Below, piece after piece: positions 8,662-12,409 of a DNA stretch of 64,000 nt. Below the pieces are notes generated by a model. It was not told the origin of the DNA and made no database searches. It saw only the letters and a program-made list of their open reading frames with translations. Each line of letters opens with the position of its first letter. The first letter of the stretch is position 1. Location of the stretch: the NCBI GenBank assembly GCA_963663385.2, contig CAXXXD010000001.1, forward strand, positions 352,001-416,000, in the 5' to 3' direction. Made by a program: the position numbers and the translations under genes. The DNA comes from Oceanispirochaeta sp. Its GTDB lineage: Bacteria > Spirochaetota > Spirochaetia > DSM-2461.

Positions 8662-9825
8662 TCAAAAGGAGCGGCTGAAATTTTCTTCCGCCGTTTTTTC
8701 AACTTTTTTTCTGAATACCGACTTTGCAATCAGCTCCTCCAGCTTTGCCTCGAAGGCCTCTTCATCCACAGGGATTTCCACCATTTTTCCCTCAAAGCTG
8801 GAGAGCATAATGGCATTGTCCATGGCGATGGAGCCGATGCCCTCTGCAGCAGGCGCTATAAGCTCGGCTCTTCCGGCGATGGCGTCGCAGAAATTCTCAA
8901 GGATGATCCGATGCTCTCCCCCTCCGGCGTCAAAGGGTATATCAACGGTCCAGCACTCGGGCTTTTCAAAACCCTTTTCAGCGTTTTTAAGATGATTGAG
9001 AAGCGATTCCCTGTTCCGGAGAAAGGTCAGTCTGTCTCCTTCCCAGATCAGCCGACCCTGCTCTCCCGCAATTTCCAGACGGTTCGTCCCGGGAGCCTCT
9101 CCGGTCGATGTAATGAAATGCCCCACCATACCGTTATCGTATTCAAAGTAGGCCGTTACTTCGTCTTCCACTTCGATGTCATGGTATTTCCCCAGCGAGG
9201 CGAAGCCTCTGACTCGGTCGGGACAGCCGGCGAACCACTGAAACATATCGAGCTGATGGGGACACTGGTTCATGAGAACCCCGCCCCCCTCACCGGCCCA
9301 GGTGGCCCTCCAGCCTCCCGAATTATAGTAGGACTGAGTGCGGTACCAGTCGGTAATAATCCAGGTCATCCGGATCAGTTTCCCCAGTTCCCCCGCATCG
9401 ATCAGTTCCTTGATTTTCCGGGCGGCCCCCCGGGTCCTCTGCTGGAACATGGCGGAGAAAACCAGGCCGGGGGTCTCTTTCCGGGCGGCCTCCCAGGCGG
9501 AAATCATCTTCCGGATATCCTTCACATGGACGCCGACCGGTTTCTCTGTCAGAACGTGGATCCCTCTGGCAAAGGCCTCTACAGCGATGGTCGTGTGGGC
9601 GTAGTGGGGGGTGGCGATGACGATGCCGTCAATCCCGCCGGCGCCGAACAGATCTTCGGTCGAGTTATATCCCCTGCAGCCGTATAAGGCGGCAGCGGCG
9701 TCGGTCTTTTCCGCAGCAATATCGCAGACAGCAGCCAGCTCGGCGGTATCCATAGAAGTGATATCCCGGCAATGGCAGGTTCCCATATTTCCCAGGCCGA
9801 TAACGGCCAGTCTGATTTTATCCAT
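8662..9825 (-). CDS. Gfo/Idh/MocA family oxidoreductase
   Basis: GLGNMG Rossmann motif, IATPHYAH, HVLTEKP, EGGGVLMNQCPHQLD. Confidence 0.93.
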   Translation of the reverse strand: MDKIRLAVIGLGNMGTCHCRDITSMDTAELAAVCDIAAEKTDAAAALYGCRGYNSTEDLFGAGGIDGIVIATPHYAHTTIAVEAFARGIHVLTEKPVGVHVKDIRKMISAWEAARKETPGLVFSAMFQQRTRGAARKIKELIDAGELGKLIRMTWIITDWYRTQSYYNSGGWRATWAGEGGGVLMNQCPHQLDMFQWFAGCPDRVRGFASLGKYHDIEVEDEVTAYFEYDNGMVGHFITSTGEAPGTNRLEIAGEQGRLIWEGDRLTFLRNRESLLNHLKNAEKGFEKPECWTVDIPFDAGGGEHRIILENFCDAIAGRAELIAPAAEGIGSIAMDNAIMLSSFEGKMVEIPVDEEAFEAKLEELIAKSVFRKKVEKTAEENFSRSF

Positions 9826-9884
9826 TTATCTCTCCTATAAAAAGTCAATCATAAGCCTATTAACAAGCTTACAATTGAACCGGA

Positions 9885-10997
9885 TTACCCAGTTTTTACG
9901 GCATTGAATGCAGCCGCCTGCATCTTCAAGTACTTATCATCCGGAACCATCTTCAACGGATCAAAGGGTTCACGGGTTTTCAATATGGAGTACACTACCG
10001 TACTCATCTTTCTTGCAGAGGCGATAATACTCGTGCCGCTGCCCTTGTTCTTCTTCATCGCTCTGTACTTCGTCATGATACGGTAATTGCCAGTCGTTTT
10101 CCGAGTTCTAACCATTCCCATAACACACTGAACAAATGCCGTTCTCAGTTCTACAGCCCCTCTCTTTGTTATATGCCCATGATGAATCGTCTCATTGGAG
10201 TTCTGCACCCATGGTACAAGACCGGCATAAGCCGAATACTTCTTGGCACTGGCGTACCGCTTGATATCATCCGTATAGGCCCTAATAGTCGATGCCGTTA
10301 TCAATCCGACTCCCGGGATCGTCTGCAATAACTGTACATCCTCATCTTCCTTTACAAGTTCCAGCAGGACTTTCTCTAACTGCTTGACCTGGTTCGAAAC
10401 CTGATCTATCGTAGAAAGCAGCGGTTCTATCGCTTTGGCAGCGCTTCCGAAACTCCTATGGTCCACGAGACCGATGAGGATGCGCTGCCTTTCTTTTTTA
10501 CTCTGCAGCGCAGCTCTTTTTGTTTCAATTCCATACCCTAGAAGCAGTCCGTGAACCTGATTCTTCAAAGATACGACTGATTTAACAAGGATAGTTCTGG
10601 ATTTAAGAACTCTACGGATATCCTCACTCTCCTGAGAACAAAGCTGTGATTCGGGAAGCATATCTTTTTCCAAGAACTCTGCTAGAGTTCTGGCATCATG
10701 CTTATCCGTCTTTTTCACTGATTCATTTACAACTTTGAATTTCAGTGTATTCACAACCACCACCTCAATCCCTGCTAGCAATAGCTTGTTACGGAAGAAC
10801 CGGGCATTTCCTGTTGATTCCACTGCAGCCCTAACATCAAGGCCCTCTTCTGTATAGGACACTGCTTTCTCAAGAAATGCTCTGTAACCGTCCTCAGAGG
10901 TCGGATACATTCCTGATTCACAAATGCTTCTATCATCACTCAGGAAACAGACTGTTAACTGGGATTTGTGCAGATCCACTCCGATACTCATCTTCAT
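9885..10997 (-). CDS. IS110-family DEDD recombinase/transposase
   Basis: GVDLHK, AVEST, KTDKHDA (RuvC-like DEDD), LQTIPGVG, AYAGLVPWVQNS (catalytic Ser position), ARK; start at 10997 chosen for the AGGAG RBS 7 nt upstream. Confidence 0.95.
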   Translation of the reverse strand: MKMSIGVDLHKSQLTVCFLSDDRSICESGMYPTSEDGYRAFLEKAVSYTEEGLDVRAAVESTGNARFFRNKLLLAGIEVVVVNTLKFKVVNESVKKTDKHDARTLAEFLEKDMLPESQLCSQESEDIRRVLKSRTILVKSVVSLKNQVHGLLLGYGIETKRAALQSKKERQRILIGLVDHRSFGSAAKAIEPLLSTIDQVSNQVKQLEKVLLELVKEDEDVQLLQTIPGVGLITASTIRAYTDDIKRYASAKKYSAYAGLVPWVQNSNETIHHGHITKRGAVELRTAFVQCVMGMVRTRKTTGNYRIMTKYRAMKKNKGSGTSIIASARKMSTVVYSILKTREPFDPLKMVPDDKYLKMQAAAFNAVKTG

Positions 10998-11019
10998 ACC
11001 TTCGCTCCTATTGCCTAAA

Positions 11020-11175
11020 ACAGCGCCTGTACGGTGAATTGATTCCATTCTCCTATCCGGTCTCGAAGACCATTGAATGTTTCGGTCACGGCTCTTCATT
11101 CTCCTGTACGGTCTCGGAGACCAGTAAAAATGGCGAACAGTAACCTGGCTGTTCTAAACGATGTTTAGAACATTG
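11020..11175 (-). ncRNA. Putative IS110 bridge RNA in the non-coding left end
   Basis: 10-bp hairpin at 11150-11172 plus two homologous modules GGTCT-ncg-AGACC-[guide]-AATG carrying TACAGGAGA (target match) and ATAGGAG (donor match); boundaries approximate. Confidence 0.6.
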
Positions 11176-11177
11176 TA

Positions 11178-12314
11178 TCAATCCACAAGCCTATGAAGAC
11201 TTTTTATCATTCCTCCTGTATATTCCAGTATTCGCGGTTCCACCCATGTTTCGAGAGGAATGGCAATCGGGCAGTTTTGAAAATGAGACTGGTAGAGAGC
11301 CAGTACGGTTTCCGTTGTCTCAGCCAGATCCGCCAGGCTCACGACAGGCTCATAGATCTCTCCCTTTTCCCTCATTTCCATAGCGGTTAAAATATCTCTG
11401 TAGTTCTCTCTGTGAAGCGCCCCGTAACAGGATTTTCCCGGGGCTTCAGACGTTCCGTTATCTGTAAAGGGTTCCAGCCTTTCAGTCAGTTCGGGATCTG
11501 TGCAGCTGAATCCACTGCTCCCGGTCAGAGTCAGAATCCCCCGGTCAAACCGCAGGGTCAGCCGCGGATCCCACGGAGTAGTAAGGTCATTCTCGAAATG
11601 CAGACTTATCTTCTGCGATTTCACAATGTCCCGGGGATAGCAAAGTTCTCCCGATCCTTTATCTTCCACTTCGATGGATGCGATTTTCTCTCTGTACAAG
11701 CGGTATTCCGCCGATTCCGGCCGGCCGATCAGATAGTGAAGGAGGTCCAGTGTATGAATCCCCTGATTGATGAGAGTCCCGCCCCCCTCCTCAAGCCATG
11801 TTCCCCTCCAGGAATCGCTTTCATAATAGGCGGGAGGTCTGGTACACAGGAATGTGATATCTCCCCCCAGAGTCTGTCCCAGAGTATTTTCCCGGATAAG
11901 ATTTCTCACTTCTCCGATCAGAGGGGAGAAGCGGTGCTGAAAGATCCCGAAAGAAAAGATTCCCCGTTCTTCCGCATTCAAGGCGGCAGTTTTCATACGG
12001 GCAAGCTGCTCCAGCGAGACAGCAAGGGGTTTTTCGCATATAACATGTTTGCCCGCTTCCAGGGCGTCAACCAGCGCCTGTTCATGAAGGTGGTGAGGAA
12101 GACAGAGCGCCACGGCCTGAATATCGGCAGAACACAGCATTTCCTTCCAGTCACTGTAAAGCCGACAGTTCCGACGGGAATCTAGTTTTGACAGTTTTTC
12201 CGGGTCTGTATCGCACAATGCCGACAACAAGGCCCGACCGTCATTCTCTATAGCCCAGGCATGGCTTTCCGCAATACTGCCGCATCCGATAATACCGATC
12301 TTCAGTTTCTTCAT
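11178..12314 (-). CDS. Gfo/Idh/MocA family oxidoreductase (last codons supplied by the IS end)
   Basis: GIIGCGSIA, CLPHHLH, HVICEKP, EGGGTLINQGIHTLD; start at ATG 12314. Confidence 0.9.
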   Translation of the reverse strand: MKKLKIGIIGCGSIAESHAWAIENDGRALLSALCDTDPEKLSKLDSRRNCRLYSDWKEMLCSADIQAVALCLPHHLHEQALVDALEAGKHVICEKPLAVSLEQLARMKTAALNAEERGIFSFGIFQHRFSPLIGEVRNLIRENTLGQTLGGDITFLCTRPPAYYESDSWRGTWLEEGGGTLINQGIHTLDLLHYLIGRPESAEYRLYREKIASIEVEDKGSGELCYPRDIVKSQKISLHFENDLTTPWDPRLTLRFDRGILTLTGSSGFSCTDPELTERLEPFTDNGTSEAPGKSCYGALHRENYRDILTAMEMREKGEIYEPVVSLADLAETTETVLALYQSHFQNCPIAIPLETWVEPRILEYTGGMIKSLHRLVD

Positions 12315-12409
12315 ATCCCTACCATAATTCCGGTTCCAGCATTTATGAATGACTGTATTCTGAAGAAACATGGACTTTTTCTGACTATTTACTATAATCT
12401 AGGAGTATT

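Follow-up and report, generated by a model that had tools for sequence, protein, structure and literature searches.

IS900 of Mycobacterium avium subsp. paratuberculosis, a member of the IS110 family, reportedly targets translation initiation signals, which is said to be the subject of a 1997 paper by Doran et al. The target motif of IS900, CATGNNNNNNTCTCCTT, is the reverse complement of a Shine-Dalgarno (SD) sequence followed by 6 nt and an ATG; the element seldom breaks a coding sequence and carries an element-spanning antisense open reading frame (ORF), hed (PMC8141618, available text). Recombinases of the IS110 family have been shown to be RNA-guided (Durrant 2024, available text). The element described here lies in a stretch of 64,000 nucleotides from Oceanispirochaeta sp. 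(the window; assembly GCA_963663385.2, contig CAXXXD010000001.1, positions 352,001 to 416,000) and is very probably an active IS110-family element whose bridge RNA is set to the SD sequence. Targeting of translation starts is already known in this family; what is new is a bridge-RNA guide that is fixed on the SD sequence, in elements co-oriented with the host gene and throughout a wide clade. An earlier note, made from the window sequence, had proposed that the element targets an SD sequence and leaves both neighbouring genes translatable. Its observation is confirmed and its interpretation of the element is supported.

The recombinase has an N-terminal DEDD_Tnp_IS110 domain (PF01548; E-value: 8.7e-21, residues 5-155) and a C-terminal Transposase_20 domain (PF02371; E-value: 4.6e-19). 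It matches the PDB entries of IS621 (8wt6; E-value: 9.2e-16 over recombinase residues 202-349, with the catalytic serine judged by eye only) and ISCro4 (9t56; E-value: 1.2e-15), and the nearest named element among plasmid records is ISLin1 (30% identity). The element can be classified in the IS110 family as it has a DEDD RuvC-like domain, a Tnp domain and a two-loop structured RNA in a long non-coding end; its junctions share only AGGAG, with no long terminal inverted repeats, and its loops match and covary with target and donor, the right side of the target excepted. It resembles IS621 and ISCro4 in its DEDD RuvC-like and Tnp domains, in a left-end RNA of approximately 150-180 nt with a 5' hairpin and two internal loops (one for the target, one for the joined ends), in a core common to both junctions and, according to the available description of IS621, in -35-like and -10-like hexamers that would meet across a circle junction. 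It differs from these systems in targeting an SD sequence, whereas IS621 targets a REP sequence, and in that its target and donor share 7/8 bases on one side. A further difference concerns the order of guides within each loop. IS621 has its bottom-strand guide (LTG) on the 5' side of the stem-loop and its top-strand guide (RTG) on the 3' side (Durrant 2024; Hiraizumi 2024, available text of both), while in the window element this order is reversed and the complement of the top strand comes first, with the donor loop assigned by covariation.

An order in which the top-strand complement comes first is the IS1111 pattern, IS110 elements showing the opposite (Siddiquee 2024, available text). The window element also resembles the IS1111 group (seekRNA elements ISEc11, ISPa11 and ISKpn4) in its long subterminal inverted repeats, which are 10 bp here, 7-17 bp in the available description of that group and 2-3 bp as reported there for the IS110 group. 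IS1111 elements, however, have a long right end that encodes the RNA, downstream of the transposase gene, whereas here it is encoded upstream and the right end measures only about 50 nt from stop codon to AGGAG. The upstream RNA, the IS1111-like strand order and the 10-bp repeats together indicate that the clade combines IS110 and IS1111 traits.

The likeness to IS900 rests on insertion habit as given in the published description, and the IS900 host belongs to a different phylum. Both elements insert at translation starts (here in 10/10 copies and 72/76 clade junctions). In IS900, as the orientation of its motif is read in the available account, the host gene is antisense to the transposase, whereas gene and recombinase are co-oriented here; nor is a hed-type element-spanning antisense ORF matched, the longest antisense ORF of the window element being 88 amino acids. 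No published link between targeting of the ribosome-binding site (RBS) and bridge RNAs was found in a search that extended to the following texts; the supplementary target tables of Durrant 2024, which lay outside it, might list AGGAG-type targets. Neither "ribosome" nor "RBS" occurs in Durrant 2024 or the CazIS110 preprint, Siddiquee 2024 lacks "RBS" and has "ribosome" once (on a cargo gene), and a preprint on large IS110 elements contains none of "Ribosom", "RBS" or "Shine". The IS900 papers covered, in their available text, do not tie IS900 targeting to a bridge RNA.

Copies, junctions and element-free sites

The host genome (5.3 Mb, four contigs) contains ten copies of the element by BLAST (99.4-100% identity, identical ends), and these are its only DEDD_Tnp_IS110 matches. 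The length from AGGAG to AGGAG is 1386 nt in all ten (1381 bp with a single pentamer); the earlier note had correctly located the element within 9821-11230, but these limits are too wide. In every copy the right-hand AGGAG is followed after 6-8 nt by an ATG that opens a co-oriented ORF of 98-689 amino acids. None of the nine further copies occupies a non-RBS site, and the element points in the direction of the host gene in all ten, both as anticipated from the window copy. The left AGGAG is preceded by TAC in six copies and by AAC, CAC, GGC and TAA in one each, such that AC precedes the pentamer in 8/10 copies and C stands at -1 in 9/10. Two copies, that of the window and copy 9, clip the end of the preceding open frame.

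Every gene in this region of the window is on the minus strand. The element separates two genes for Gfo/Idh/MocA oxidoreductases, and the next gene encodes a xylose-isomerase-like TIM barrel. In minus-strand order the junctions read ...GAATATAC-AGGAG-GAATGATAAAAAGTC...(element)...GACTTTTTAT-AGGAG-AGATAA-ATGGATAAA..., and both pentamers appear as CTCCT in plus-strand letters (9832-9836 and 11213-11217), as claimed. Removal of the element together with one AGGAG, read by hand, restores an upstream protein ending in ...EYTGEING, with a stop codon that overlaps ATGGATAA. Through the insertion the final five residues of this protein are swapped for twelve, and element DNA (11212-11178) supplies the last 11 codons and the stop codon of its gene; this is the new short tail described in the note. 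The downstream gene keeps its RBS, also as described, with the spacing of AGGAG unchanged and the difference restricted to bases farther upstream. At the level of such sequence signals, both neighbours would be expected to remain translatable.

The element-free arrangement is found in two genomes of another genus of the same family (G019 and G023), where the orthologous oxidoreductase genes abut over a single AGGAG that sits in the final codons of the upstream gene, with overlapping stop and start codons (...AAAGGAGAGAAAGCATGA... in G019, ...AAAGGAGAGATACAATGA... in G023). The longer junctions read ...CCATACAAAGGAGAGAAAGCATGAAAC..., where the upstream protein ends in PYKGEKA, and ...TTCAAAGGAGAGATACAATGAGA..., where it ends in DFKGEIQ. 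These orthologous empty junctions carry one AGGAG where this had been predicted and match the EYTGEING reconstruction. In sequencing run X7 the element forms a separate 1389-nt contig covering 9831-11219 with foreign flanks on both sides, and the ends of this contig independently mark the same element boundaries. The element is present in this run, which is labelled with a different organism code (C), at 100% identity and with at least two other flanks per side; the right-hand flanks align up to the CAT of a start codon.

Scanning a single genome for each species yielded 76 further loci, with 79% down to 32% protein identity, and nearly all of them have the same ends and a target-loop strand of the form G-NNN-AGGAG. 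The right junction was surveyed in 93 sequences, of which ten lack a recognisable right end and seven lie at a contig edge, leaving 76 usable. An ATG follows the right-end pentamer after 3-10 nt in 72/76 (mode 6 nt; 5 nt in 12/72 and 4 nt in 1/72), always on the recombinase strand, and 66/76 open an ORF that is at least 50 amino acids long or runs off the locus. The four exceptions are the degenerate loci L075 and L087, L049 (a repeated GGAGG with the ATG 14 nt away) and L070. The last of these, on a Leptospira-labelled contig, is a single case with the guide GAGAG in place of AGGAG, a left junction at TAGAG and no start codon after it.

Bridge RNA fold and guide covariation

The 215-nt sequence that separates the recombinase ATG from the left AGGAG folds more stably than 200/200 shuffles (z -3.6). 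The fold has an outer stem (11186-11177 paired with 11043-11034), within which lie a 5' hairpin (11171-11151), a target loop module (11145-11084) and a donor loop module. The consensus fold of 23 related left ends contains the outer stem, a target module with basal stem and distal hairpin, and a donor module with distal hairpin. Of its 28 consensus pairs, 12 are changed on both sides; paired cells amount to 96.6% versus 19-42% when the partners are slid, and none of 500 shuffles attains the observed values. The 5' hairpin occurs in every relative sequence, yet is not alignable. The target module (...CAUUUUUACU-(hairpin)-GUACAGGAGAAUGA...) and the donor module (...ACAUUCAAU-(hairpin)-GGAUAGGAGAAUGG...) are near-repeats of one another, the 3' strand of the first being identical to the insertion site TACAGGAG and that of the second to the right end ATAGGAG. 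No Rfam family matches the element, the sole match (E-value: 0.49) falling outside it.

The guide changes with the site. A 75%-identical element in a genome of the same genus has the guide UUCAGGAG and the insertion site ATCAGGAG. A 71%-identical element of another genus, of which six copies were fetched, has the guide CAAAGGAG and the sites TAAAGGAG (4 copies), AAAAGGAG and TATAGGAG. Among 66 sites having both guide and left flank (27 guide types), the two agree at -1 in 61, at -2 in 49 and at -3 in 29, compared with fractions of 0.37, 0.34 and 0.33 for non-cognate guides. When one consensus flank is taken per guide (15 guide triplets), 29/45 positions agree against a shuffle mean of 16.7, a value equalled in 0/20000 shuffles; TAC, CAA and TTC guides go with TAC, TAA and ATC flanks, respectively. 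The donor 5' strand is fully complementary to positions +1 to +5 of the left end in 21/23 relatives, with the pair types GAATG/CAUUC (17), GCACG/CGUGC (3) and GCATG/CAUGC (1). Covariation of the guides with the site and with the left element end, together with the match of the donor 3' strand to the right end, indicates that the RNA reads the SD sequence plus two programmable bases, as well as both ends of the element. A guide that reads an RBS, as the earlier note had supposed, is thus visible in the bridge RNA and covaries with its target in relatives. Judged from these alignments, AGGAG is fixed clade-wide, and the guide varies in the two bases that precede it.

A model of insertion can be proposed on this basis. 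The left end encodes the bridge RNA, ahead of the gene for the recombinase. Its target loop strand GUACAGGAG corresponds to the site (T)ACAGGAG, and its donor loop reads the element ends as they are joined (...TATAGGAG and GAATG..., one on each side). With AGGAG common to target and donor, recombination within the pentamer would leave AGGAG at each junction, such that the right end would hand over an SD sequence to the downstream gene at the original spacing. The guide geometry would set the orientation, so that recombinase and host gene always run in one direction. By analogy with IS621, the crossover dinucleotide would be AG on the gene strand and CT on the other; AGGAG contains this AG, although the crossover point inside the pentamer is not readable from sequence, and in the IS621 frame the CT core of the window element would be on the strand opposite the recombinase gene. 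The A-rich spacer that follows the SD sequence on the right may be read by the target loop 5' strand.

Several other readings of these motifs were rejected. The AAUGA after AGGAG in the target loop, considered as a handshake guide to the left end GAATGA, is unchanged where the left end is GCACG and belongs to the basal stem. Fixed pairing of the invariant CAU of the target loop with the start codon was rejected; the register tried would place the ATG 5 nt after AGGAG and the register derived from the donor loop 4 nt after it, both short of the observed mode of 6 nt. A ten-codon ORF in the left end (MIKSLHRLVD) has its ATG 1-2 nt from the SD sequence, and this ATG is missing in some relatives (CACG); the conserved TGATAAAA at this end is better read as a -10 element. 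The SD sequence of the recombinase gene itself, ATAGGAG (11005-11011, before the ATG at 10997-10995), is present as described in the earlier note, which had remarked on its match to the donor core, but this match is not kept among relatives. It was ruled out as a meaningful donor match, and the motif is most likely a plain SD sequence.

Restriction to ribosome-binding sites and alternative explanations

RBS context was defined as an ATG 4-9 nt downstream that opens an ORF of at least 50 amino acids. The genome contains 15341 AGGAG and 1462 ACAGGAG sequences, and among the free sites 1187/15331 and 112/1454, respectively, are in RBS context (7.7% each). Location of 10/10 copies ahead of an ATG-started ORF, compared with 7.7% of free AGGAG sites, is therefore not due to chance. 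A search of the genome for a 16S 3'-end motif, which would have shown its anti-SD sequence, gave no match. For the eight ACAGGAG copies, the probability that random choice would place all of them in RBS context is (120/1462)^8, or approximately 2e-9 by our own arithmetic. The six bases to the right of occupied sites are also richer in A/T than those at free RBS-context sites (0.88 versus 0.63; 0/20000 resamples), and they fit the U-rich target loop 5' strand better than free SD-context sites do (4.4/6 versus 2.95/6; 0/20000 resamples). These results favour a right flank that is read to some degree, or else a preference for DNA that opens easily.

Several points weigh against the reading of the element as one whose bridge RNA is set to the SD sequence. 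The target loop 5' strand varies among elements and shows no covariation with the right flank across the clade. Eleven free ACAGGAG sites match this strand at 6/6 positions, and none of them lies ahead of a gene, such that the modelled base pairing alone cannot explain the all-RBS pattern. The A/U-rich hairpin at the right end (15 pairs, then CUUUUUAU) is terminator-like and may have a polar effect on the downstream gene. Finally, a same-species empty allele was not found in the contigs of runs X6, X7, X9 and X10, in a metagenome scan or in genomes of the same genus. The contigs of these four runs include none that joins the host flanks across the element and no circle junction, and the metagenome scan with 20 nt of left flank gave zero matches. 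The same-genus genomes are too diverged at the copy 7 and copy 4 sites to serve as empty sites: for copy 7 the best same-genus match reached 82% and covered a short internal DNA segment, and for copy 4 it reached 72% across almost all of the query, with upstream synteny lost at the copy 4 loci.

The first two of these points bear on the strongest alternative, namely that guide recognition extends to no more than about 7 nt (NNAGGAG) and takes no account of gene context, such that an all-RBS pattern would reflect survivorship after the loss of copies inside genes. This explanation would account for a 5' strand that does not follow the right flank, and 10/11 of the perfect-fit free sites fall within long open frames (151-988 codons), so that insertion there would disrupt a gene (the remaining one is in a 79-codon frame). 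It is nevertheless rather unlikely. In many hosts 72/76 junctions adjoin an ATG and none is clearly inside a gene, although 92% of the NNAGGAG sites of the genome are non-RBS; the figure of approximately 2e-9 for the eight ACAGGAG copies tells against random choice, and selection against gene disruption leaves unexplained why occupied RBS sites are A/T-rich on the right. Restriction to true RBS sites would combine recognition of NNAGGAG and an A-rich right-flank preference with, probably, the subsequent loss of insertions inside genes.

A second alternative is that the element is not a neutral passenger but a mobile expression cassette, kept for supplying or improving the RBS or the transcription of the downstream gene. 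The right end always brings TATAGGAG at the natural spacing, and 6/10 copies are inside apparent operons (each overlapped by a co-oriented frame of 100 codons or more, or separated from its end by at most 70 nt). However, element-free orthologues already have AGGAG at that spacing, a search of the right end found no -35/-10 pair on the gene strand that could serve as an outward promoter, and ten near-identical copies at unrelated genes resemble recent transposition rather than selection at each site; this explanation is highly improbable. Hardly credible at all is the proposal of an element without RNA guidance that simply prefers AT-rich intergenic DNA, its two AGGAG being either fixed ends or a duplicated target. 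Each copy does have the same pentamer at its two ends, but the bases before it differ among relatives and track the RNA loop, orthologous empty sites already hold one AGGAG, and the recombinase comes from a family shown to be RNA-guided (Durrant 2024, available text).

Beyond the reading of the window element as RNA-guided to the SD sequence, a broader interpretation can be put forward tentatively. The element may belong to a deep IS110-type clade in which half of the target guide is permanently fixed on the SD sequence as a universal, strand-specific mark of transcribed non-coding DNA; insertions would put guide RNA and recombinase under a host promoter, and the right end would rebuild the RBS and spare the host gene, in a mirror image of IS900, which strikes this signal from the opposite strand. 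If this is true, homing to translation starts would be a long-standing strategy that RNA-guided recombinases have retained repeatedly. On the narrower reading already, the programmable loop is a natural bridge RNA loop aimed not at a repeat but at a functional signal before more than 1000 genes per genome (1187 free AGGAG sites here), with the replacement signal carried within the element's own end. It provides a concrete, testable model of low-damage "safe harbour" transposition and of the expression of integrated IS110 copies, and possibly an RNA-level explanation of the old IS900 observation. The natural guide variants, with two programmable bases and a fixed pentamer, offer a means to study the minimal target length of bridge RNAs. 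For annotation, IS110 insertions of this kind within operons need not mean disrupted genes.

Element ends, expression and further features

The subterminal inverted repeats (10 bp each) lie just inside the junction pentamers. GATAAAA at the left end is invariant in 23 relatives, and the right end TTGACTTTTTATAGGAG is also kept in relatives. A circular form would put TTGACT and TGATAAAAA 17 nt apart across the pentamer, and by analogy with IS621 a promoter would be formed across the circle junction; such a promoter would explain the conservation of GATAAAA and TTGACTTTTTAT. The RNA and recombinase of integrated copies could be expressed by host read-through, as every copy is in a transcribed leader or intercistronic gap and has the same direction as the gene. 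Candidate roles of the right-end hairpin are those of a terminator, a recombinase site or an occluder of the promoter. By eye, a hairpin before the right-end TTGAC recurs across the clade with differing sequences, and in Treponema-labelled elements it pairs with TTGAC itself. The coordinates of these and the other features are collected in Table 1.

Table 1. Features of the IS110-family element and its flanks (window positions)
Feature	Position	Strand	Basis or remark
Upstream Gfo/Idh/MocA oxidoreductase gene	11178-12371	-	ORF ends in ...EYTGGMIKSLHRLVD and a stop codon
Left-junction AGGAG	11213-11217	-	Crossover inside pentamer; assignment to host or element impossible
Element-specific DNA, IS110-family	9837-11212	-	1376 bp, 1381 bp including one AGGAG; identical ends in ten copies
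Left subterminal inverted repeat ATAAAAAGTC (11207-11198), overlapping extended -10-like TGATAAAAA (11209-11201)	11198-11209	-	Sequence reading
Bridge RNA body	11034-11186	-	Single-sequence fold z -3.6; alignment of 23 relatives
Target loop 5' strand CAUUUUUACU	11123-11132	-	Complement of AG+TAAAAATG
Target loop 3' strand GUACAGGAG	11101-11109	-	Matches flank (T)ACAGGAG; covaries at -1 and -2
Donor loop 5' strand CAUUC	11075-11079	-	Complement of first five element bases GAATG (11212-11208)
Donor loop 3' strand AUAGGAG	11050-11056	-	Same as right end ...TATAGGAG; invariant, covariation impossible
Recombinase gene	9885-10997	-	370 amino acids from MKMSIGVDLHK; Pfam and PDB matches
Right-end hairpin, then CTTTTTAT, terminator-like	9845-9878	-	15 pairs, only 3 G-C
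Right subterminal inverted repeat GACTTTTTAT (9846-9837), overlapping -35-like TTGACT (9848-9843)	9837-9848	-	Sequence reading
Right-junction AGGAG	9832-9836	-	SD sequence of downstream gene, 6 nt ahead of ATG (9825-9823)
Downstream Gfo/Idh/MocA oxidoreductase gene	8662-9825	-	Intact; starts six bases past second AGGAG

A mechanical ORF call for the recombinase (9885-11099, minus strand) gives a 404-amino-acid frame that begins inside the bridge RNA, whereas the conserved start codon lies at 10997 (MKMSIG...). In this way the bridge RNA gene could be absorbed into the recombinase ORF by automatic annotation.

Contigs carrying relatives, down to 32% recombinase identity, are labelled Spirochaetota, Desulfobacterota, candidate phyla, Chloroflexota, Bacteroidota, Lentisphaerota and Clostridia; the names in the record titles are Spirochaetia, Treponema, Leptospira, Desulfobacterales, Gracilibacteria, WWE3, Dehalococcoidales, Dysgonamonadaceae, Lentisphaeria/Victivallales and Clostridia, and many of these contigs are short metagenome bins whose host labels are no better than the binning. 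A Spirochaetia genome (OY776510.1) has 15 copies of a 79%-identical element, and several full copies lie directly behind a mini-element of 110-145 bp (L024:1175-1287, L025:1140-1287 and L031:1142-1287). The mini-element has the same left end (AGGAGGAATGATAAAA) and a right-end-like finish (...TTTTTATAGGAG), and most other left flanks in this genome finish alike. The rebuilt ribosome-binding site appears to have been hit again, stacking elements at one gene start. Duplications were also seen within elements: L048 has a right end with a tandem duplication of approximately 30 nt (two ...GACTTTTTATAGGAG), and the target loop of L073 contains a duplicated GTGAAGGAGA segment.

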